A stretch of 64,000 bases of DNA, from assembly GCA_036499685.1 (NCBI GenBank), contig DASYDH010000059.1, forward strand, positions 23,057 through 87,056, read 5' to 3'. The translations under genes were made by a program, and so were the position numbers. How positions within the stretch are numbered: position 1 is the first letter of the stretch; each line of letters starts with the position of its first letter. A model generated the notes under the pieces. That model worked only from the letters and a program-made list of their open reading frames with translations. It was not told where the DNA came from and ran no database searches. Below are positions 23,689-35,202 of this stretch, piece after piece. This DNA comes from Lacunisphaera sp. (GTDB lineage Bacteria > Verrucomicrobiota > Verrucomicrobiia > Opitutales > Opitutaceae).

Positions 23689-24909
23689 TTGAATCCCAAC
23701 CGTCCGTACATCGCCCTGCTGTTCACGACTTTTCCGAAGACCTCGGAGACTTTTTTGCAACGCGATGTGGCGGCATTACAGGCGAAGGGGCTGCGGCTAA
23801 AACTTTTTTCGCTGTGGGGCGGTGGCGGCGAGTTCAATGGATTATCGGTGCAGAATTTTCCAAAGTGGCGGTTGATCTGGGTTTTTTTGTGGATCATTCC
23901 GTGGAATTGCGTGTGGCGTCCGAGAGTCGTGCGTGATTTGTTTGAGGGCGTGTTGACGCGCGGCGCGCCGTCGTGGCTGAACTTTTGGGAGAATATGTTG
24001 GGCGCTGGCTTTGCCGGCAGCTATGCGCGACAGTTGAGCAAGGATCCGCCCGCGCTGGTGCACGGCGCCTGGGCGGGTGCGCCGGCTACGGCCGGCTGGT
24101 TGTTCTGGCGAATGTTTGGCTGGCCGTACAGCAGTGGGGCGCACGCCTACGACATCTATGAGCACGGTGGCGATTGGTGGTTGCGCGAAAAGTTACTGCA
24201 CGCCCGGTTCACCCACACGTCGACGGAAATGGGCCGGCGTGAACTGATCGCGCGGGATTTGCCACCGGGGAAAATTAAATGCATTCGACGCGGCTTGGGC
24301 ACGTTTCCGACGTTTAAGCCATTGCGCGCAAACCGGCAGCCGCTTCGCCTCATTTGCATCGCGCGTCTCGTGCCAAAAAAGGGACTCGATCATCAATTGC
24401 GAATTTACGCCGCGCTGAAGCAAGCCGGACTTTCCTTCGAGGCCCGGATCGTGGGCGATGGGCCGTTGCAGAGTGAATTGGAGAATTTGATCGCTAGTCT
24501 CCGGCTCGATCGCGAGGTGAGTTTGCTGGGGAAATTACCGCAGCCGAAAGTGTGGACACAGCTCGCGTGGGCCGACGTATTGCTGCACACCGGTGTGATC
24601 GCGAAGAGCGGCGATCGCGACGGATTGCCCAATGTGATTCCGGAGGCGATGGCGGCTGGTGTATTGGTGGTGACATCACCTGTTTCCGCGACGACGGAGG
24701 CAATCAGCGAGGGACGCACGGGCTTGGTGGCGGACGCTGATCAGCCGCTCGCGTGGGTGGCGGCGCTGCGGAGGTTGAGTGACGACAATCAGTTGGCGGA
24801 GACCTTACGCACTGGCGCGCGAACTTGGGTTGAGGAAAATTACGACGCGCATAAAAATACTGCGCAACTGGTCGCGTGTTTTGAACAGGCCATGAAAAAT
24901 CAACCGTGA
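23689..24909 (+). CDS. GT4 glycosyltransferase (WcaL-like)
   Basis: TTG start (uncertain); FP..SETF..R; ARLVPKKG; DRDGLPNVIPEAMAAG. Confidence 0.88.
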   Translation: MNPNRPYIALLFTTFPKTSETFLQRDVAALQAKGLRLKLFSLWGGGGEFNGLSVQNFPKWRLIWVFLWIIPWNCVWRPRVVRDLFEGVLTRGAPSWLNFWENMLGAGFAGSYARQLSKDPPALVHGAWAGAPATAGWLFWRMFGWPYSSGAHAYDIYEHGGDWWLREKLLHARFTHTSTEMGRRELIARDLPPGKIKCIRRGLGTFPTFKPLRANRQPLRLICIARLVPKKGLDHQLRIYAALKQAGLSFEARIVGDGPLQSELENLIASLRLDREVSLLGKLPQPKVWTQLAWADVLLHTGVIAKSGDRDGLPNVIPEAMAAGVLVVTSPVSATTEAISEGRTGLVADADQPLAWVAALRRLSDDNQLAETLRTGARTWVEENYDAHKNTAQLVACFEQAMKNQP

Positions 24910-24931: not shown

Positions 24932-25984
24932 ATGATTTACTATGATATCACCAAAATGGGAGCCGCCCGGCATCGCTCGGGGTTGATGCGCTTGACGTCA
25001 CGCTTGATGGAGGAACTGGGCTCGGCGATCACGACGGTCGCGTGGGATCAGCGACAGCGGGCGTTCGTCGTCGGCCGTCAACGCGACCCGGTAAAATGGG
25101 AGGCGAAGGATTGGTTGTTCACGGTCGAGATGTTCAGTGAAAGCGAACGTCCGGGAATTTCCGCATTTCTGAAAAATCCGCCCTGTCGTCTAGCCGCGAT
25201 GTTTCATGACGCGATCCCATTGAGATTTCCGCACATCACCTGGCCGCAGAGTGTGCAGCGCCATCCGGAATACATGAAGTTGCTCGCCGGATTTGAACGC
25301 ACGTGGGCGATCTCGGAAGAAACGAAAAAAGACTTCGCCGGCTTCTGGCGCTGGCAGGGCGTGGAGGTGCGCGCGCAGGTGGATGGGATTGAACTAGGCG
25401 CGGATTTTGATGGGGGCACCCGGGTGCAACGCGATCCGTTGGTTGCTTCGGGCAGACCGGCGCTCCTGTGCGTTGGCATCGTTGAGCCGCGGAAAAATCA
25501 AACGTTTCTCCTAGATGTTTGTGAAGTGCTCTGGGGGGAGCAGGTTGATTTTGAATTGGCCGTGCTCGGGCGCATCAATCCCCATTTTGGCAAACCAATC
25601 GCGGCGCGGATGAAGGCGTTGGAAAAGCGCGAACCACGTTTTCGTTTTCACGCTGCGGCGGGGGATCAGGAACTGGCGAGATTGTACGCGAATGCGCGCG
25701 CGGTCGCGTTTCCCACCATCGCGGAAGGTTGCGGGTTGCCGCTGCTGGAAGCGTTGTGGCGCGGCGTTCCGTGTGTCGCGAGCGACCTGCCGGTGCTGCG
25801 GGAAAACGCTGACGGAGGTGGCTGTTTGGTAGCTGGCGTCAACAGTGTCGAAGATTGGCGCACAAAATTGCGCAGTGTGCTCACTGACGCAGAGCTCAGC
25901 CGGCGTTTGCAGCGCGAGGCGATGACTCGGACTTTGCCGCGTTGGACCGATGCGGCGCAAACGATTTTGAAGGCGTTGCGTTAA
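24932..25984 (+). CDS. GT4 glycosyltransferase (WbdA/mannosyltransferase-like)
   Basis: FHDAIPL.FP; VGIVEPRKNQ; EGCGLPLLEAL..G.PC. Confidence 0.88.
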   Translation: MIYYDITKMGAARHRSGLMRLTSRLMEELGSAITTVAWDQRQRAFVVGRQRDPVKWEAKDWLFTVEMFSESERPGISAFLKNPPCRLAAMFHDAIPLRFPHITWPQSVQRHPEYMKLLAGFERTWAISEETKKDFAGFWRWQGVEVRAQVDGIELGADFDGGTRVQRDPLVASGRPALLCVGIVEPRKNQTFLLDVCEVLWGEQVDFELAVLGRINPHFGKPIAARMKALEKREPRFRFHAAAGDQELARLYANARAVAFPTIAEGCGLPLLEALWRGVPCVASDLPVLRENADGGGCLVAGVNSVEDWRTKLRSVLTDAELSRRLQREAMTRTLPRWTDAAQTILKALR

Positions 25985-26006: not shown

Positions 26007-27203
26007 TCACATCTGTTTGACGGCGTAAGCCATCGCGACAGCGATTTTTTCGAGATCTTCGTCGCTGTGGAGCGCTGAAACGGCAGTCCGGATGAGATCC
26101 TTTCCTGGCGGCACGGCGGGAGCGATGGACATGACGGTGAACACACCTTTGTCCAACAATGCCTGCCAGAAACGATAAACCAGCTCCTTGGAACCGAGGA
26201 CGATTGGTACGGCGGGAGTTTCGCTGTCCCATGTGTCGAGTCCGAGCGTCTTGAGCATTTCGCGGTAGCGCTTCGTATTGCGCCAAAGCCGCTGCAAATG
26301 CTGGGGTTCCGTCTGCATGATATCGAGCGATGCCGAAGCCGCTGCGGCTTGGCTGGGACTGATCGCGGCACTGAAAAGGGTCTGCTTGGAGTTTGTGCGG
26401 AGGTATTCGATCAACTCGCGCGAACCGCTGACAAACCCACCGGTACTCGCGAGCGATTTCGACATCGAACCACAGAGGATGTCGACCTTGTCGTTGAGCT
26501 TAAAGTGATCGACCGTGCCGCGTCCCTGCCGGCCGAGGACCCCCAAACCATGCGCGTCGTCGACGACCGTAAAGCAACCGTTGTCCTCACCAATCTCCGC
26601 CAGTTCCGGCAGCCGGCAAACATGGCCTTCCATCGAATAGACCCCCTCGACCACGAGCATTTTCGGAATGGAATGAGGCACGCTCTTGAGGACTTGGCGA
26701 AGATCCTCGGGGTTATTGTGGCTGAAGCGTTCCGCTGTGGCCATGGATAGACGGATGCCATCCCAAAGGCAGGAGTGAATGTTTTTATCGGCGAGGACGA
26801 TGTCACCCTTCTGGACAAACGAAGCCACCGCAGAGCAGCACGAAACATAACCGGCGACCGAAATATGGCAGGCCTCGCGCCCGAGAAACGCGGCGAGTTT
26901 TTCCTCCAGCGCGACGTGATATGCGCGCGAGCCGTTGGAAATGCGGGCACCGGTCGTGCTTGAGCCCCACGCTTTCGCACCTTCACCGCACGCCTCGATT
27001 ACCTTGGGATGGAACGACAATCCGAGGTAGTCGTTGCTCGAAAGCATGATCATATCCCGACCCTGCAACTTGATATGCGTACCCTGCTGCGCCTCCATCG
27101 CGTGGTAGTAGGGCTTGTATTTCAGCCGCATCTTTGTCGCGTAGTCGTCCTGCGCGCGTTCGATCAGGGCTTTTTTGGTCTTGGTGAAAAGGGAAAGGGC
27201 CAT
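26007..27203 (-). CDS. PLP-dependent alpha-oxoamine synthase, serine palmitoyltransferase-like
   Basis: 398 aa; SNDYLGL, GSSTTGAR, IHSC..DG, EGVYSMEG, DDAH, GSMSKSLASTGGF (PLP lysine), PAVP....IR. Family is secure; substrate is not. Confidence 0.85.
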   Translation of the reverse strand: MALSLFTKTKKALIERAQDDYATKMRLKYKPYYHAMEAQQGTHIKLQGRDMIMLSSNDYLGLSFHPKVIEACGEGAKAWGSSTTGARISNGSRAYHVALEEKLAAFLGREACHISVAGYVSCCSAVASFVQKGDIVLADKNIHSCLWDGIRLSMATAERFSHNNPEDLRQVLKSVPHSIPKMLVVEGVYSMEGHVCRLPELAEIGEDNGCFTVVDDAHGLGVLGRQGRGTVDHFKLNDKVDILCGSMSKSLASTGGFVSGSRELIEYLRTNSKQTLFSAAISPSQAAAASASLDIMQTEPQHLQRLWRNTKRYREMLKTLGLDTWDSETPAVPIVLGSKELVYRFWQALLDKGVFTVMSIAPAVPPGKDLIRTAVSALHSDEDLEKIAVAMAYAVKQM

Positions 27204-27272: not shown

Positions 27273-28457
27273 TCAGGTCTTTGGCGTCAGCGTGTGCATC
27301 CACGAGACAATGGCATTCGCGTAGCCGTTCCACGATTGCAACTTGCGGTTGCGGGCGGCGACCGAGAGAGCCGCCAGCTCGCCGGGATTTTTCAATAGTG
27401 ATCGCATGGCGGCCGCCAAATCATCCGGGTTGACGGACACCAGCGCAATGCAACCTCCGCCGACGGCGGCTTCGGCCAACGCGCCGCGCCCCGAGCAAAT
27501 ACAGGGACGTCCGTGTTGGAGACTTTCGAGGACGGGAAGTCCGAATCCTTCGATCAGAGACGGATAAACTGTAAAGGAACATTCGCGGTAAGCCGCGTGA
27601 AGGCGTTCGTCGGTTACGCTGCCTTCGAAAAGGAGCGGCCGGCCGGCGCGCTGCAAAATGGCAATCAGATCGAGCGCGGGTTTCGCGGTGTCAGGCCGGG
27701 CGAGACCGAGAAGTTGCAATTCAAATTGTACGCCGGAATCCCAGAGGGACACGGCTGCTTGCAACAATGCCAGGTGATTTTTTCGTCCCTCGATCGTTCC
27801 GACGCTCAGGATGCGCGGAAGTGAATCGGGCCGGGTGCGAGGAGCATCTGGTGCGAGCGTCAGGCTGAGCGGATCCACGGCGAGTGGAATTGCTTCGACG
27901 GGCGGAACATTTTTCACTCCCAGCCACCGCCAGTACTCGCGAAGGCTCGCGGCGGAGTCGGCGGAAATTGCGGCGACTCCGTCGAATTGCAGCAGTTCGC
28001 GCAGGTAGGAGGGCATGCGCGCCACGGTGCCGGCCGGCGTTAGTTCAGGAAATTTCAGTGGAATGGCATCGTAGAAGATCGCGATTTTGGCACCGCGAAC
28101 GGCCGGAAAAATTTCACGGAGTCGGCTTCCCACTTTGGCGGAAAATAATTCGGGACAAATGAAACCGGAATTGTCTGGAAGGAACGGTTTGGCACCGCGC
28201 CAGCGGGTGGTCGCGCCGGAGATTTTTTGCGAGAGCGTCCACTTGGCGCCGCGTGATCTGCCCGAGCCGCCGCTGCGATCACGCAGCACGGCGAGTTCGC
28301 CAGTGCCTAGTGTCCGCCAGCCGATCAAATGGGGATCGTAGCAAACGGGAGCGGCGTTGCCCTGCGCATAAAGTTCCTCGAACAAACTCCGGCACACGCG
28401 CTGAATGCCCGTTTGGGCGGCGGTATGGCTGGTGTGCGTGGCGTCGAAGAGCAACAT
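27273..28457 (-). CDS. GT4 glycosyltransferase (WbdA-like)
   Basis: From ATG 28457; TGIQRV, YDAIPLKFP, VGTIEGRKNH, EGFGLPVLESL..G.PCI. Confidence 0.88.
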   Translation of the reverse strand: MLLFDATHTSHTAAQTGIQRVCRSLFEELYAQGNAAPVCYDPHLIGWRTLGTGELAVLRDRSGGSGRSRGAKWTLSQKISGATTRWRGAKPFLPDNSGFICPELFSAKVGSRLREIFPAVRGAKIAIFYDAIPLKFPELTPAGTVARMPSYLRELLQFDGVAAISADSAASLREYWRWLGVKNVPPVEAIPLAVDPLSLTLAPDAPRTRPDSLPRILSVGTIEGRKNHLALLQAAVSLWDSGVQFELQLLGLARPDTAKPALDLIAILQRAGRPLLFEGSVTDERLHAAYRECSFTVYPSLIEGFGLPVLESLQHGRPCICSGRGALAEAAVGGGCIALVSVNPDDLAAAMRSLLKNPGELAALSVAARNRKLQSWNGYANAIVSWMHTLTPKT

Positions 28458-29183: not shown

Positions 29184-31403
29184 TCACGGTACAACTCCTG
29201 GGATTCCCACTATGCGCAGCTCCTTGATGGCGAACGGCAGCGATTCCTCATCTCCCTTTTCCCGGGAAATCGAAAGCGTGATCTGATTACGTTTTCCGGC
29301 AATCAATGGCACCTTGATTCCCCAGGGCGGCGCACCGGAAACGCTTAAAGCGAAGTCATCAGCTCCTTTCACCCGACGCGAAATCGTCCATGTTCCCTTC
29401 GGCCAGTTCGCTGGCTTAAAGGGATGCAATTCCATAACCAATTGACTGGGTGAATGCGGCAGTATCTCCAGATCAATTGAAGGCGAGGCCATATCCGGCG
29501 GTCCGTTCAGAGGAAAGACCCCGTTCATCGTGAAGACACGATTGCTCTCGCGAAGCAGGACATACTCGAGCCCCGTGAGACGCCGACGCGAGTTTGCGTC
29601 AAAGGTGTCGGCCCAGGCCCGGCTGACGAGCACCGCAGCGGGAGTGGGAATTTTCCGATTAGCCTCATTGATCACGTTGTCCCGCAGGTAGCCTCCACCT
29701 TGCTCCCCCCGGGCGGCAAAATAGATCCTGCTGTCGGAGAGGAAATAGGCCGCCCACATGCCGTGATAAAATGCCATGCGAAATGTCGCGGCTTCGATCA
29801 GAATCGGCCGTGCATGCAGCGTGGTTTGGGACTCTTCGCGCAATGTGAACCAATCATGGGAGAGCAGCTTTCGTTCGCTCCACTTATACATCTCCCGGCA
29901 TTGCATGCCCACGGCAAGGGTTAGAAAAGCAATCAGGCCCGCCATACCGGGCAGCACGAGCCTCCGGAAATTTTTCAATTCGGACTGATACCAATAATAC
30001 GCATCGACGATTACCCCGCCCAAAACAGCCGAAACAAAGATGCCGGTGAATTGCACACTCTTTTGCCAGCCATAAACGAAGTGCTCCAGCAAAGTATAGA
30101 TCAACAGGGCCAATCCGCCCGAAAAAACGAATAGACCGCCCCAGCGATCGCGTGCCCGGCGCCAAGCCAGACCGAGGCCAATCAGGATAAGCAAAGACAG
30201 GATTCCTCCCACCCATATCCCCAACCATTTGGCTGCAGTCGGAGCCAACGTGCCCAACGCCGGAAGGTATTGAACCGGATGCAACAGATCCATGATATTG
30301 CCCCAACGATCATCCGCTCGCGCCGACAAATAGGCGGCAACAAACCCCCAACCCGCCCGGAAAGTTGTGGCCGGGTTCAGGAGCAAACTGACACCGACGG
30401 CAACCGCCACGACCAACTTGGTACGCAGTTGCATTCCCGTTGAGGAAGTAACGAACGTCCGAATCCAAAGCAATCCGCAGGGCAAAAACACAAAGGGGAT
30501 CATTTCGGGATAGGAGCAGTACAAGCCGTGAAGGCTCAAAGCCAGCAACGATGACCACACCAGCAATTCGTTTCGCCGTTCCCACCCGGCGCGCAAGGCC
30601 GACTCCGTAGCGATGATGGCAGTCGATCCCACTATCACTCCGAGTAAGTTGGGTAGATTGGAATTACTGTAGAAAAACATAAAAATCGGGTGGAAAACCA
30701 TGAGCGATCCTTGGGCCAACCACGATAGTCGCTCGGTATAGAACGTCCGGATTGCCAGATGCGCCACCGCCAGCCATGGCAAAAAAAGACAGGCCGTGAG
30801 ATAAACATAGAGCTTGAGCGGAGACAGATTCACCACGGCTGAACAAAGCGCGATCAATCCCTCCGAGCCCATGCGTCCCCACGCGGGACGCCAGCCCACG
30901 ACGGCATCCGCCGCGCTCATCAGCGGCTGCAACGGATTCCACAGTGGGTGCTCCATGTAGGTGTACCGCTTGAGATGCTCCGCAACCACGATCCAGAAGA
31001 AACTGTCATGATTGCTGGTGCCGTCGTACATCACGGTGGTAAACGAGCTCAACACCGGCCAAAGCAGCAGAACGAAAAAGAGCAGCACGAGCGAGCCATA
31101 GAGCCACGTGGATTTCCGGCAAAACCAAGTCCGACAATCGCGCCAAAACATCCTGCGGCTCCGAGTCCAAAACAGGGAGACAAAAACCGGCGTCAAACAT
31201 CCCCAAGCCGCGAGACCGGAGAGCGGCAGAAAGAAATTTACCAGCGAAACCGCCAGCAGGAGCGAAGCGATTCCCGTCAAGATCGCGATCGACATCCGGG
31301 TAGGTTCATCACTGCGGTTGAAAGCCGCCGCCAGCCAATACCCGGCCAAAACCAGCACGACGGGAATACCGAGCAGCAGCAAAATTCCTTCAAATGGATT
31401 CAT
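29184..31403 (-). CDS. Polytopic membrane protein, putative GT-C glycosyltransferase with C-terminal beta-rich domain
   Basis: 739 aa from ATG 31403; more than 10 hydrophobic segments; loop motif YDGTSNHDSFFW; soluble C-terminus. Confidence 0.65.
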   Translation of the reverse strand: MNPFEGILLLLGIPVVLVLAGYWLAAAFNRSDEPTRMSIAILTGIASLLLAVSLVNFFLPLSGLAAWGCLTPVFVSLFWTRSRRMFWRDCRTWFCRKSTWLYGSLVLLFFVLLLWPVLSSFTTVMYDGTSNHDSFFWIVVAEHLKRYTYMEHPLWNPLQPLMSAADAVVGWRPAWGRMGSEGLIALCSAVVNLSPLKLYVYLTACLFLPWLAVAHLAIRTFYTERLSWLAQGSLMVFHPIFMFFYSNSNLPNLLGVIVGSTAIIATESALRAGWERRNELLVWSSLLALSLHGLYCSYPEMIPFVFLPCGLLWIRTFVTSSTGMQLRTKLVVAVAVGVSLLLNPATTFRAGWGFVAAYLSARADDRWGNIMDLLHPVQYLPALGTLAPTAAKWLGIWVGGILSLLILIGLGLAWRRARDRWGGLFVFSGGLALLIYTLLEHFVYGWQKSVQFTGIFVSAVLGGVIVDAYYWYQSELKNFRRLVLPGMAGLIAFLTLAVGMQCREMYKWSERKLLSHDWFTLREESQTTLHARPILIEAATFRMAFYHGMWAAYFLSDSRIYFAARGEQGGGYLRDNVINEANRKIPTPAAVLVSRAWADTFDANSRRRLTGLEYVLLRESNRVFTMNGVFPLNGPPDMASPSIDLEILPHSPSQLVMELHPFKPANWPKGTWTISRRVKGADDFALSVSGAPPWGIKVPLIAGKRNQITLSISREKGDEESLPFAIKELRIVGIPGVVP

Positions 31404-31423
31404 CTTAATTCTTTCAGGTTTGG

Positions 31424-33025
31424 TTACCAGCTGGCGATGGATTCGAGCCGGCGGCGGAAGCGCGCACCGATGACGGCCGGGGAATAGCGTTCTTCCATCC
31501 GCACGCGCGCTGCCGCGCCTAACCGGGCGCCCAGTGCGCGGTCTTCCGACAGGCGGCGCATCCACCAAGCCGCGTGCGCCACCTCCGGCTCGGCCCAGGT
31601 TTGCCCTTTCGCGTAGGGTCCGTGGTTACTTTCGAGCGCGATGAGTTCGCAACGGACGGGACATCCGTTGTCCGCAGTAACGAATTCCGCAGTGCCTGAC
31701 CAGTCGGTGGAAATGACGGGCTTGCCGAGATACATCGATTCGGCGACGGCGATCCCGAAGCCCTCCGAACGGTGCAGGGAGACGAAACAATCGCAGGTGG
31801 ATTCGAGTTCGTAAATTTCCGTGCGCGAAAGCGTGGTGGAGATGATCGTCGTGTTCGGTAACGAGGCAGCATCGGTGCGGAGTCGCTCAAAGTCGGCCGG
31901 ATTCGCGGCGGTGTTGTGCACCTTGATGACCAACGCGGCGCCCTTGCCGGCAAGTCCGGAACGGCGAAACGCCTCAATTACGGCGGCTGGATTTTTGCGT
32001 TCCGAGTAAGAATTCAGGTCGTACAGAAAAAGAAAAAGATACTGGTCGCGAGGCAGCCCAAACTTGGCGCGAAAATCGCCGGTCGGGCGGGTAAACGAAA
32101 TGGCGTGCGGCATCGTGAGTACCGGCACCGAAACTTTCTGCGCAATGGCCTCCGCAGCGAAACGGGAAGGCGCCCAGATTTCGTCGAAGACGTCGGCGAA
32201 GCGAACCCACGCGTCAGGAAATTCGGGAAGTTCCCAAGCCCAGTAGCCGATATTGTATTTGCCGGAGCGAAACGCGGCGCCATGGTAGGTATCGATGTCA
32301 AGGGACACCGGCGCGTCGAGGTGAAAAACATTAACGGGGTGGGGATTCGTCAGCTGTAGCCGCGAAACGAAGGCGGTGTCCGTTTGCGGATTGATACAGT
32401 GCAGCTTCAGCTCGACGAGCGCGGCTTCCAATTTCGCCGCCTCGGCAGCACGTGCCATGCAGCGGACGGATTCGCCCACCCCGAGATCGGCGCGGAAAAA
32501 TCCGACGATGTTGAGCCCCAGATGCAGCGAGCGGCGCGTGACCTCGCGGTTCCACGGTGCGCTACGATTGCCGAAATCGCACAAGGTTTCCCCGTCGACT
32601 TCAACGCGCTGGATGCGCAACCGCCGGTTCCGCGGCTGCAGACGCCATTTTTGCAGAAAACCCAACCCGGTGACACGACCGGCCCACGCAAGCAGATTGC
32701 TGAACGATACGCCGAGCAGGCTGAGCTCGAGCCGGTGGCCGGAAGAAGGGGTCGTGGCTGGCCAGGGAATTTCAAACCGAAACGGTCCGGGTTTCATTCC
32801 CGTCTGACCCGAAACGATCCTATCATTGATTTTTATTTCGAGGCCCAGTGCTCCGTCGGCGGCCGTGTCACCGGACGAAGGAAGGAGTTCGCCGACAATC
32901 GCGAGTGAAGCACCGCCGTCGAGTGGCGGAAGATTTATGGTGCCTTGCTCGCGAATCCACGCGGAATTTTCGGCGGTGTCGTCGAAGAAGAGACCGGTGA
33001 ACTTGGGCGGACGTCGCGAAGGCAT
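31424..33025 (-). CDS. GT4 glycosyltransferase with N-terminal accessory beta-domain
   Basis: 533 aa; GLNIVGF..ADLGVGES.R, IGYWAWELPEFP, RKNP.AVI.AF, SLHRSEGFG...AESMYLGKPVI.T.WSG. Confidence 0.9.
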   Translation of the reverse strand: MPSRRPPKFTGLFFDDTAENSAWIREQGTINLPPLDGGASLAIVGELLPSSGDTAADGALGLEIKINDRIVSGQTGMKPGPFRFEIPWPATTPSSGHRLELSLLGVSFSNLLAWAGRVTGLGFLQKWRLQPRNRRLRIQRVEVDGETLCDFGNRSAPWNREVTRRSLHLGLNIVGFFRADLGVGESVRCMARAAEAAKLEAALVELKLHCINPQTDTAFVSRLQLTNPHPVNVFHLDAPVSLDIDTYHGAAFRSGKYNIGYWAWELPEFPDAWVRFADVFDEIWAPSRFAAEAIAQKVSVPVLTMPHAISFTRPTGDFRAKFGLPRDQYLFLFLYDLNSYSERKNPAAVIEAFRRSGLAGKGAALVIKVHNTAANPADFERLRTDAASLPNTTIISTTLSRTEIYELESTCDCFVSLHRSEGFGIAVAESMYLGKPVISTDWSGTAEFVTADNGCPVRCELIALESNHGPYAKGQTWAEPEVAHAAWWMRRLSEDRALGARLGAAARVRMEERYSPAVIGARFRRRLESIASW

Positions 33026-33054: not shown

Positions 33055-35202
33055 TTATTGGCTGAGGCGCAAGTTGACCAAACGAAATCCCAGCAGACGC
33101 CGATCCGTCGCCGACGGTGCGGTGACTGGACCTGTGAAGTGGAAATGAATATGATTAGCTCCGGGTTGCAAAGTGAGGGCAAGATTCACCATGCCGGCGG
33201 GCGTCTGTCCAGCCGCGATCTGCCAGAGCTGATGTTCGTCAAATGAAGCTGTAATCTGTCCCGCGTTTTGAGTGGCGGCGCTAAATTCAATACTCACCAC
33301 GATGGATTGACTGGCTGGATTCCAGATGGACAAGTCTGCTTCCCGTCCCGCCCAACGCCAAACATCCGAGTTGTTTCGCTCAAGCCCGAACCAGCCCTTT
33401 TCGGCCAGGAATTGCAGCTTATCCGGAGAATTCGCGGTTTCAGTCCATGGATCAGCGAGCCAGTCGGCATTAACATCAGGCAGCTTCGGTGACGAAGCCG
33501 GGTGCAAGGCAAACGCAAGGTGGTCGCCGATCTCGACAATCTCGTTATACCCGAGCGCGATCAATTGGCGGCGGAGCGCTGCGCCCGCATCCGGATAGGC
33601 CTTCTTGTTTAAATAGATTGCGGCGTAACCCGCTTTTTCCAGTGACTCGCACATTTCCCCGACCGGTCGACCCGCGATCCATTTTTCCCAGCGCAACGCT
33701 TTTTCCCCGGTGAGAAGACCATAGGAGAAATTTGTGCTGACGCTGAAAAACCACGGTCGAAACAGCTCATAATCGGTCATGCCATTGACCGGTGGCTGTT
33801 CAAGAAACGGCACCACGGGTAGTTGAAAAACTGACGCGCCCGCGGGCAATTTCGAGTCGAGTTGCGCAGCAACCAGCCGGTCTTCCGAAACTTTTTTTGC
33901 CAGATAGGCGCGATCTGCGGAGAACGGTCGGCGAGGCAACTGATCCCAGAGTCCGATCATCGTTGCGACAATGGCAAATACGCTCGCGAGCCAGGCGGGA
34001 AGATGGCGGCTGCGGCGGGAAGCCCATGAGGCGAGTGCGAAAAGAGCGATCGCGAGCAAATAGATCGAATACCGATTCCCCGCCCGAAAGAGATCGATGC
34101 CAGCGAACGCAAGCAGCCCGTTCAGGCCTCCGACGATGAAAAAAAGAATCAGCCAGCCAAACAAGGCGGCATACGAGGGTCGGAGTCCCAGTCGTCGGTG
34201 GATCGCCGCGTTGGTTGCGGTGATTGCGAGGACGAAGAGGCCGCCGATGCCGGCGATCCCGAGATAGGGGAAGAAAAGTTCACCCTTGAGACTCGTATCG
34301 GCCGCGTAGCGTGTACCAATGCCGGCAGCGAATGCCCAGCGATGAGAGGGGGGAGGGATGAGGAGTTCGATCGGGCGCAGGCCGTAGATTTCGGTGCTCG
34401 CGTAGTTGCGTTCGAGCAAGCCGTGTTCCCCGCCGCATAACTTGAAAATTGCGCTGTAGTTTGTCGTGAGCAACGTAGCTGCAAGGACCGCCGCACAGGC
34501 AAGACCCATCATTAGATTGCTTCGCTGGCGATGAGTAGCCGCCTGATAAATGAGGGCGAAACCCAGAAGCTGGCAAAAACCAAAGGTGAAATAGGGGCTG
34601 CCCATTCCGGTCGCGACCGCAGTAGCGAGGCAGAAGGTGCGCCAACCGCGAAATTTGAGGAACTGCTGGCTGCTGCCGATCAGCCACGCGCTGAGCAATT
34701 GGGCTGGCACGACGTAACTCAATGTAAACGAGTAGTGGGAAAGGCCCCGATGACGATTATAGAAACTAAAGCCAAAGAGGAGTGCCGCAGCCGCGGAGTA
34801 GACTGGGCGATGACCGAGCGCCCGGCTGCAAAAGTAGAAGGTCGCGATCGCGGCGAGATGCGCCGTGATCAGCGCGAAATTGCTCGCGGCGATCAGTCCG
34901 GTGATTTTTGCCAGTGTGCCGAACAGAATGAACACCATCGAGTCGGGCATCGGGTAGGCCGACCAGTCGGCGCGCCATGGCGCGCCCAAATGTGGCATGA
35001 CCTTATTGAATAAAATTCCGAACCCGGCGTCGCCGGAGAGTTTGAACCTCGCCAACACTTCGAGCGCGTCGACACTGTAAGCTGCGGGCGTCTGCCAACT
35101 GGCGAGCGTCCAATGCCCCGTGGCGAAAATCCAGATCAATGCAGCGAGGGTCAGAAGCGCGGGCAGGCGGAAATGTTTCTGGCTGACGAGGGCGAGTCGC
35201 AT
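33055..35202 (-). CDS. Polytopic membrane protein, putative GT-C glycosyltransferase with C-terminal beta-domain
   Basis: 715 aa; P.AYSVDA loop after TM1; E.YGLRP.ELL.PP; VFQLP..PF.E; C-terminal GWFGLE..WRWA...DRRLLGF. Confidence 0.65.
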   Translation of the reverse strand: MRLALVSQKHFRLPALLTLAALIWIFATGHWTLASWQTPAAYSVDALEVLARFKLSGDAGFGILFNKVMPHLGAPWRADWSAYPMPDSMVFILFGTLAKITGLIAASNFALITAHLAAIATFYFCSRALGHRPVYSAAAALLFGFSFYNRHRGLSHYSFTLSYVVPAQLLSAWLIGSSQQFLKFRGWRTFCLATAVATGMGSPYFTFGFCQLLGFALIYQAATHRQRSNLMMGLACAAVLAATLLTTNYSAIFKLCGGEHGLLERNYASTEIYGLRPIELLIPPPSHRWAFAAGIGTRYAADTSLKGELFFPYLGIAGIGGLFVLAITATNAAIHRRLGLRPSYAALFGWLILFFIVGGLNGLLAFAGIDLFRAGNRYSIYLLAIALFALASWASRRSRHLPAWLASVFAIVATMIGLWDQLPRRPFSADRAYLAKKVSEDRLVAAQLDSKLPAGASVFQLPVVPFLEQPPVNGMTDYELFRPWFFSVSTNFSYGLLTGEKALRWEKWIAGRPVGEMCESLEKAGYAAIYLNKKAYPDAGAALRRQLIALGYNEIVEIGDHLAFALHPASSPKLPDVNADWLADPWTETANSPDKLQFLAEKGWFGLERNNSDVWRWAGREADLSIWNPASQSIVVSIEFSAATQNAGQITASFDEHQLWQIAAGQTPAGMVNLALTLQPGANHIHFHFTGPVTAPSATDRRLLGFRLVNLRLSQ

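Follow-up and report, generated by a model that had tools for sequence, protein, structure and literature searches.

The SPT-like gene and its neighbours

The window, which is the whole 64,000-nucleotide stretch of DNA that was analysed, comes from the genome (G000) of a soil or freshwater Verrucomicrobium that is 100% complete by marker genes. It carries an intact open reading frame for P0001, a serine palmitoyltransferase (SPT)-like alpha-oxoamine synthase (AOS) with the fold of the class I/II aminotransferases (Pfam Aminotran_1_2, E 1.4e-46), set among glycosyltransferase (GT) genes (Table 1). A sequence-only reading of this DNA had reported three motifs in the protein, and all of them were found in the translation: DDAH at residues 215-218, GSMSKSLASTGGF at 245-257 and PAVP..IR, in full PAVPPGKDLIR, at 362-372. 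K249, which lies inside GSMSKSLASTGGF, is the predicted PLP lysine. The nearest homologs are from Lacunisphaera, Opitutus and Oleiharenicola, at 87-93% identity, which places the source genome in the Opitutaceae (Verrucomicrobiota). Between genera the AOS is conserved at 86-91% identity, the level of LeuC and far above that of the GT4 proteins (57-60% for GT4c), suggesting that the enzyme has a core envelope function rather than a role in an accessory metabolite.

The same reading had placed the AOS gene directly downstream of one GT4 gene and converging on two more, and this layout was confirmed. The GT4c gene lies 69 nt upstream of the AOS gene on the same strand, no terminator-like site was found in the 69-nt gap, and the two genes are probably co-transcribed. 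Orthologs of GT4c align from residue 1 of the protein that starts at 28457. On the other side, the GT4a-GT4b pair on the plus strand converges on the AOS stop codon with a gap of 22 nt. GT4d is a looser member of the neighbourhood and was found no more than 8 kb from the AOS gene in 9 loci. The 794-aa membrane protein gave Atlas structure matches to clusters of the PMT_2 family (TM 0.51-0.63) and adjoins GT4c in only 4 of the compared loci, so that its link to the AOS pathway is uncertain; its Atlas record begins at residue 56, and the true start may be internal. The proposal of the sequence-only reading that a lipid made at this locus could also be the acceptor for the GT-C array is a tentative one. 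Farther upstream on the minus strand, past the genes for the 794-, 533- and 715-aa proteins, are methyltransferase, GT2 and dTDP-rhamnose genes.

Table 1. Genes at the AOS locus, with positions in the window, and genes of the four-gene block that accompanies it in related genomes
Feature	Position	Strand	Basis
P0001, SPT-like alpha-oxoamine synthase (AOS), 398 aa	26007..27203	-	ATG start; Pfam Aminotran_1_2
GT4c glycosyltransferase	27273..28457 (or ..28514 from upstream TTG)	-	Pfam Glycos_transf_1
GT4b glycosyltransferase, convergent with AOS	24932..25984	+	Pfam Glycos_transf_1
GT4a glycosyltransferase, upstream of GT4b	23689..24909	+	Pfam Glycos_transf_1 and Glyco_transf_4
GT4d, 533-aa GT4-like protein, looser neighbourhood member	31424..33025	-	Pfam Glycos_transf_1
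794-aa polytopic membrane protein, GT-C/PMT-like	29184..31568	-	no Pfam family; predicted structure
715-aa large membrane protein	33055-35202	-	no Pfam family
Block gene 1: ACP + FabA/FabZ-like dehydratase fusion (ACP-DH), 310-320 aa			
Block gene 2: FabB/FabF-like ketosynthase (KS), 419 aa			
Block gene 3: classical SDR, 285 aa			
Block gene 4: GT-B glycosyltransferase, GT28/MGDG-synthase kind, roughly 400 aa			

Active site of P0001

Residues 31-394 of P0001 aligned without gaps to residues 26-389 of the SPT of S. multivorum (SmSPT) over 364 residues. The SmSPT active site as described in PMC10196870 was used as the template for mapping, and N57, H143 (PLP-stacking), S190, D215, A217, H218 and K249 were found to be retained. 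K249, H143, D215 and H218 align with Sm K244, H138, D210 and H213, and R372 with the conserved C-terminal Arg. P0001 has the complete AOS catalytic set, namely the PLP lysine, the stacking His, the Asp to N1, the His to O3' and the C-terminal Arg. In the reference alignment, three sets of columns in P0001 match verified SPTs: G-[AS]-R-x-x-N-G (85-91), S-K-S (248-250) and F-S-A (277-279). The same columns read S-V-R-x-I-x-G, [SG]-K-A and F-S-[TN] in KBL, and G-S-G-H, G-K-G and Y-S-T in BioF.

Three positions depart from SmSPT. Across the P0001 clade, Cys122 stands in place of Sm Asn117, an Asn found almost universally, and Ser246 in place of Sm Thr241; within Opitutaceae, Ala86 stands in place of Sm Ser81. 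Since Sm Asn117 has become Cys and Sm Ser81 Ala, the amino-acid pocket of P0001 differs from that of SmSPT. Some residues of P0001 recur in CFAT/SulA, the SPT-related long-chain-base synthase of sulfonolipids (PMC13692747; PDB 28eh/7u7h), which shares with P0001 the Ala at Sm Ser81, a Tyr at Sm Phe114 and a Cys two residues past the stacking His. However, the residue preceding the PLP lysine is Ser in P0001 but Ala in CFAT, the PDB score of P0001 to CFAT is 204 bits, and the trans-subunit Lys that contacts the adduct (CoCFAT Lys280) is absent, the P0001 clade having Ala279 throughout.

Family scores and phylogenetic position

P0001 passed none of the curated NCBIfam equivalog thresholds for SPT, BioF, KBL or gly_Cac_T_rel. 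The top model was NF047600, the Bacteroidota-type SPT, at 366.8 bits, below its cut-off of 640. The other SPT models scored 331.3 bits (NF047599, beta-proteobacterial SPT; cut-off 500) and 249.1 bits (NF047603; cut-off 670), gly_Cac_T_rel 341 bits (cut-off 535), the BioF model TIGR00858 324 bits (cut-off 426), and the KBL models NF005394 and TIGR01822 304 and 247 bits (cut-offs 460 and 493). Among solved structures, S. multivorum SPT ranked highest (299 bits), ahead of Thermus BioF/KBL (246 bits), S. paucimobilis SPT (~217 bits) and cysteate acyltransferase (204 bits).

For the phylogeny, reference sequences were combined with the best 150 representatives from a library of 1.84 billion proteins. 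The references were BioF and Kbl of E. coli K-12, the Kbl of B. velezensis that adjoins tdh, the SPTs of Bacteroides finegoldii and Parabacteroides distasonis, each encoded beside a diacylglycerol-kinase-family gene, and ACP-linked AOS proteins from Roseomonas mucosa, an E. coli plasmid and P. veronii. By NCBIfam scan, the Bacteroides and Parabacteroides references exceed the cut-off of NF047600, and the ACP-linked references exceed that of NF047599. Trees were built with FastTree (171 rows) and as an IQ-TREE PMSF quick tree (63 rows), on rows that hold no S. paucimobilis, Caulobacter, SgaB, CFAT, ALAS or CqsA sequences.

In both trees BioF and KBL fell outside a clade (SH-like support 99 and 98) that unites all verified SPTs, many PKS-fused AOS domains and an Opitutales clade; in the quick tree this SPT-side clade has 50 rows, P0001 included, with an SH-aLRT of 98. 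The Opitutales AOS clade, with support of 100 and a long stem (0.5-0.7 changes per site), falls in an unresolved 40-row group (support 91) that also contains both verified SPT lineages, and it is nested in neither. The clade stands apart: of the full-length representatives in the 50%-identity library, P0122 (54%) alone is above 42% identity to P0001. An AU test on the quick tree rejected a clade of the Opitutales proteins with KBL (delta lnL 63.4, p 0.003), the KBL group having been chosen post hoc with the tree already seen. Judged by these trees, P0001 belongs to a clade of its own, apparently restricted to Opitutales, on the SPT side of the family. The comparison with SPT, BioF and KBL that the sequence-only reading had named as a check therefore grouped P0001 with verified SPTs, apart from BioF and KBL. 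The resemblance to SPT that it had noted holds as a preference for SPT over BioF and KBL, seen in the phylogeny, the AU test and the signature columns; it does not extend to the curated SPT thresholds, all of which the protein fails. P0001 probably works like an SPT, and this is the reading with the best support.

A putative lipid-building block shares the synteny and distribution of the AOS gene

Gene neighbourhoods were compared in 17-kb stretches around 20 homologs, with genes called by a codon-usage ORF scorer. The order GT4c-AOS facing a convergent GT4b-GT4a pair was kept in at least 11 of the 14 loci of Opitutaceae relatives. Of the loci with this order, 8-9 also have a block of four genes (Table 1) next to GT4a; GT4a itself stands beside GT4b in 12 loci. 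In the source genome the block is away from the AOS gene, on another contig (C35:136033-140402; L055:9034-13406), with a further GT4 gene beside it (L055:7676-8860, minus strand). As the block lies well inside C35, and as LysR-leuCD intervenes between GT4a and the block in a genome of the same genus (G144), the split reflects a rearrangement and not an assembly break.

The ACP-DH protein of the source genome has an intact DSL phosphopantetheine site and an intact FabZ His motif, GHF...P...LEA. Against the NCBIfam model for 3-ketodihydrosphingosine reductase the block SDR scored 109.5 bits (cut-off 400), and this model ranked fifth among generic oxidoreductases, so that the relation is only a hint of function. 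In the PDB, the sequence relatives of the GT28-like protein are limited to UgtP, a processive diacylglycerol glucosyltransferase, and plant MGD1, the latter matched over its full length; this kinship points to a lipid acceptor. No enoyl reductase was found in the module, and no chain-length factor, thioesterase, exporter or N-acyltransferase is conserved in the block.

A second lipid cassette was observed on contig C5 of the source genome (L056:3030-9058). It encodes two ACPs, one N-terminally extended and one small, a KS with 55% identity to the module KS, a DUF4410 protein, a KS-like protein that could be a chain-length factor and an acyltransferase of the LpxL kind, and is perhaps a cluster for an aryl-polyene-like product or another acyl lipid.

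AOS orthologs (51-91% identity) were detected in 22 of 201 Verrucomicrobiota genomes. They occur in 14 of the 15 sampled Opitutaceae relatives, the exception (G171) having only a 35% relative, and outside this family in one genome from each of four further Opitutales families. One of the 17 genomes of family f3 (G165) carries the ortholog, as do G039 and G153 from other families of the class. The genes for ACP-DH and the GT28-like GT follow the AOS ortholog without exception: all 22 AOS-bearing genomes have both, and the 179 others have neither. This agreement extends to G171, where all three are lost, and to G165 and G039, each a lone carrier. GT4c was confined to AOS-bearing genomes and was detected in 19 of them. 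The SDR was detected in 20 of them and in one outsider; at the threshold used it was absent from two carriers, among them the closest relative, G144. The module genes of G165 share one contig and lie no more than 10 kb apart, and those of G153 lie within about 16 kb. Related genomes are not independent samples, and the 201-genome comparison offers three opportunities for discordance, all of which were concordant. This phyletic profile is the strongest result of the analysis.

Genes of the ceramide pathway

Ceramide synthase and ceramide reductase homologs were sought in the source genome, a search that the sequence-only reading had itself put forward. E. coli YghO and a Rubrobacter protein served as queries for bCerS. 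These two are homologous over their full length (33% identity), the Rubrobacter protein adjoins an AOS and a CerR-like SDR, and both probably represent bCerS. Neither gave a match by tblastn, and tblastn with four CerR-like SDRs found no CerR, the best SDR match being OleD. Of Spt, bCerS and CerR, which together define the ceramide pathway in a genome, the last two are thus missing from the source genome by these searches. A canonical ceramide pathway is unsupported, as no YghO-like bCerS and no CerR were found and no N-acyltransferase is conserved alongside. The idea that the locus serves a glycosphingolipid or amino-lipid pathway is accordingly upheld in part: the GT synteny and the phyletic profile of the lipid cassette agree with it, but its canonical ceramide form gets no support, given the lack of a YghO-like bCerS and of CerR.

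Several other candidates were discarded. Pfam PF13444 is probably not a marker of bCerS, as it had no match in a Caulobacter control genome, and its absence from the source genome was given no weight. The CerR-like candidate on contig C7 is OleD and adjoins a gene for an OleC-like olefin beta-lactone synthetase. This pair (L058:5197-7877), in which the OleC-like ligase scored 628 bits to PRK09274 and 514 bits to the Xanthomonas OleC model and the OleD-like reductase 356 bits, suggests the production of long-chain olefins. A lipid kinase on contig C44 was rejected as a sphingolipid gene, as it belongs to the generic YegS/BmrU family.

LpxC was found at C26:30113-30919, inside a 465-aa open frame. 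Bifunctional LpxC-FabZ fusions are known from some bacteria, and the frame is consistent with such a fusion. Since LpxC is present, the product of P0001 would not be a replacement for lipid A/LPS.

A proposed pathway and its alternatives

We think it fairly probable that P0001 is the condensing, and first, enzyme of an Opitutales-specific module for a glycosylated sphingoid-like lipid. We infer the following substrates, order of steps, partner roles and product. The dedicated carrier, fused to the FabZ-type dehydratase, would hold the acyl chain, and the FabB/FabF-like ketosynthase, together with the dehydratase, would build or tailor the chain on the carrier. P0001 would then condense the acyl thioester with a small amino acid, L-serine being the likeliest candidate, and CO2 would be released, giving a long-chain alpha-amino ketone. 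This ketone would be reduced by the SDR, and the MGDG-synthase/UgtP-like GT and several GT4 enzymes would add sugars to yield a glycosylated sphingoid-like envelope lipid. The lack of an enoyl reductase in the module makes a polyene-like product possible. More tentatively, Opitutales may make a glycosylated long-chain amino alcohol as an envelope lipid of an undescribed class, its chain built on ACP-DH and joined to an amino acid by a divergent SPT-like enzyme, without the involvement of any homolog of the known bCerS or CerR.

The locus could instead encode a canonical glycosphingolipid pathway, in which a true serine palmitoyltransferase is followed by N-acylation to ceramide and the GT4 enzymes produce a glycosylceramide as in Sphingomonas or Bacteroides. 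The position of P0001 on the SPT side of the tree, its SPT-type signature columns and the GT4 genes adjoining the AOS are what this would predict, and the C44 lipid kinase of YegS/BmrU type is 36% identical to the kinase encoded beside the Bacteroides SPT. We nevertheless consider it unlikely, as neither a YghO/Rubrobacter-type bCerS nor a CerR was found, the best SDR match is the OleD of an ole cluster, P0001 is under every SPT equivalog cut-off, the LpxC gene speaks against LPS replacement, and the C44 kinase comes from a generic family. A similarly improbable course is that the KS, ACP-DH and SDR iterate an unsaturated chain which the AOS off-loads onto an amino acid, so that the product is a glycosylated amino-polyene or pigment and not a bulk membrane lipid. 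The missing enoyl reductase fits such a polyketide-like metabolite, as do the many nearest AOS relatives that are fused to PKSs (1000-2200 aa) and the paralogous KS/ACP cassette on C5 with its KS-like partner and LpxL-like acyltransferase. Yet the LeuC-like conservation of the AOS between genera suggests a core envelope role, the module is nearly universal in the sampled Opitutaceae (14/15), the GT inherited along with the AOS is of a membrane-lipid kind (GT28), and the block has no conserved chain-length factor, thioesterase or exporter.

It is very unlikely that P0001 is a housekeeping KBL or a second BioF merely sited among GT genes, even though public records label its homologs '8-amino-7-oxononanoate synthase' and the BioF (324), Kbl (304) and gly_Cac_T_rel (341) scores come close under the SPT score (367). 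The KBL assignment was rejected on its sub-threshold scores, on the AU test (p 0.003) and on the absence from the source genome of a Tdh above the TIGR00692 cut-off (best 189.9 vs 458 bits), which means that the usual KBL partner is absent. The source genome has only two AOS genes, that of P0001 and that of a 632-aa BioD-BioF fusion, which lies in a bioB-bioDF-x-bioC cluster on contig C15 (L002:649-2547) with bioA adjoining. Because this fusion supplies the BioF of the genome, P0001 is not the biotin enzyme; the BioF assignment was also rejected because the score falls under the cut-off (324 vs 426 bits), the gene has no biotin-operon context and both trees place BioF outside the clade. The earlier statement that no biotin genes or tdh are nearby proved correct: the window holds none, the bio cluster being on C15 and no Tdh scoring above the cut-off. 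The signature columns of P0001 are likewise unlike those of KBL and BioF, and its conserved synteny and exact phyletic match with ACP-DH and the lipid GT also argue against a housekeeping enzyme.

Bacterial sphingolipid-type lipids affect outer-membrane stability and host interactions, and most records of them are from Bacteroidota, some Proteobacteria and Myxococcota. The proposed module would add a Verrucomicrobial lineage and a different logic, with a discrete KS, an ACP-dehydratase, an SPT-like enzyme and lipid GTs, and no bCerS or CerR. If the proposal is correct, it represents an additional, type II-synthase route to sphingolipid-like lipids beside the bCerS/CerR and SgaAB routes, and its genes would serve lipid biogeochemists as a marker for environmental amino-glycolipids that are still unassigned. 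Opitutus, Lacunisphaera and Oleiharenicola have strains in culture, so that direct testing is possible. Our literature search on Verrucomicrobia or Opitutaceae sphingolipids or glycolipids returned nothing specific, and no Opitutaceae lipid chemistry was found. Spt-like genes have been reported in 22 Verrucomicrobiota MAGs from the Black Sea, with no further detail (PMC11334938).

Comparison with known systems

SgaAB, Caulobacter Spt-AcpR and Bacteroidota SPT are partial precedents for the proposed pathway. Like the Bacteroidota SPT (S. multivorum; PDB 3a2b/8guh, NF047600), P0001 is a fold-type I AOS with the PLP lysine, stacking His, Asp and His in place, and the two share the SKSLAS.GGF, R-x-x-N-G and F-S-A motifs. 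It differs in its score (367 vs 640 bits), in its separate, long-stemmed clade and in the replacement of Sm Asn117 by Cys, Thr241 by Ser and, in Opitutaceae, Ser81 by Ala. The Bacteroides SPT, moreover, uses acyl-CoA and has no dedicated ACP/KS/DH cassette, unlike Opitutales.

The Spt-AcpR-AasR-CerR-CerS system of Caulobacter (PMC9386255, PMC11324152; NF047599/NF047603) resembles that of Opitutales in pairing an SPT-type enzyme with a specialised ACP, and GT and envelope genes cluster round the ACP-linked SPT-type enzyme in Opitutales as they do in the Roseomonas locus. In Opitutales, however, the carrier is fused to a FabZ-type dehydratase, a ketosynthase takes the place of the acyl-ACP synthetase, no YghO-like CerS or CerR ortholog was found, and P0001 scored 331 against 500 bits.

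In Pseudomonas fluorescens MYb115, SgaAB produces sphinganines without bCerS, a dedicated synthase feeding a free-standing AOS (PMC12134224). The likeness to Opitutales lies in the free-standing AOS, in a chain that comes from a dedicated synthase and not from the fatty-acid pool, and in the lack of a linked ceramide synthase. SgaA is a single iterative type I PKS, whereas the Opitutales KS, ACP-DH and SDR are discrete and are accompanied by at least four GTs.

A compact arrangement was seen on a Rubrobacter radiotolerans plasmid (NZ_CP007515.1, 14230-17597; L048), where genes for an AOS, a YghO-like protein and an NAD(P) oxidoreductase are consecutive and stand beside an LTA-synthase-family gene. 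By its gene content this row looks like a compact Spt-bCerS-CerR ceramide core.
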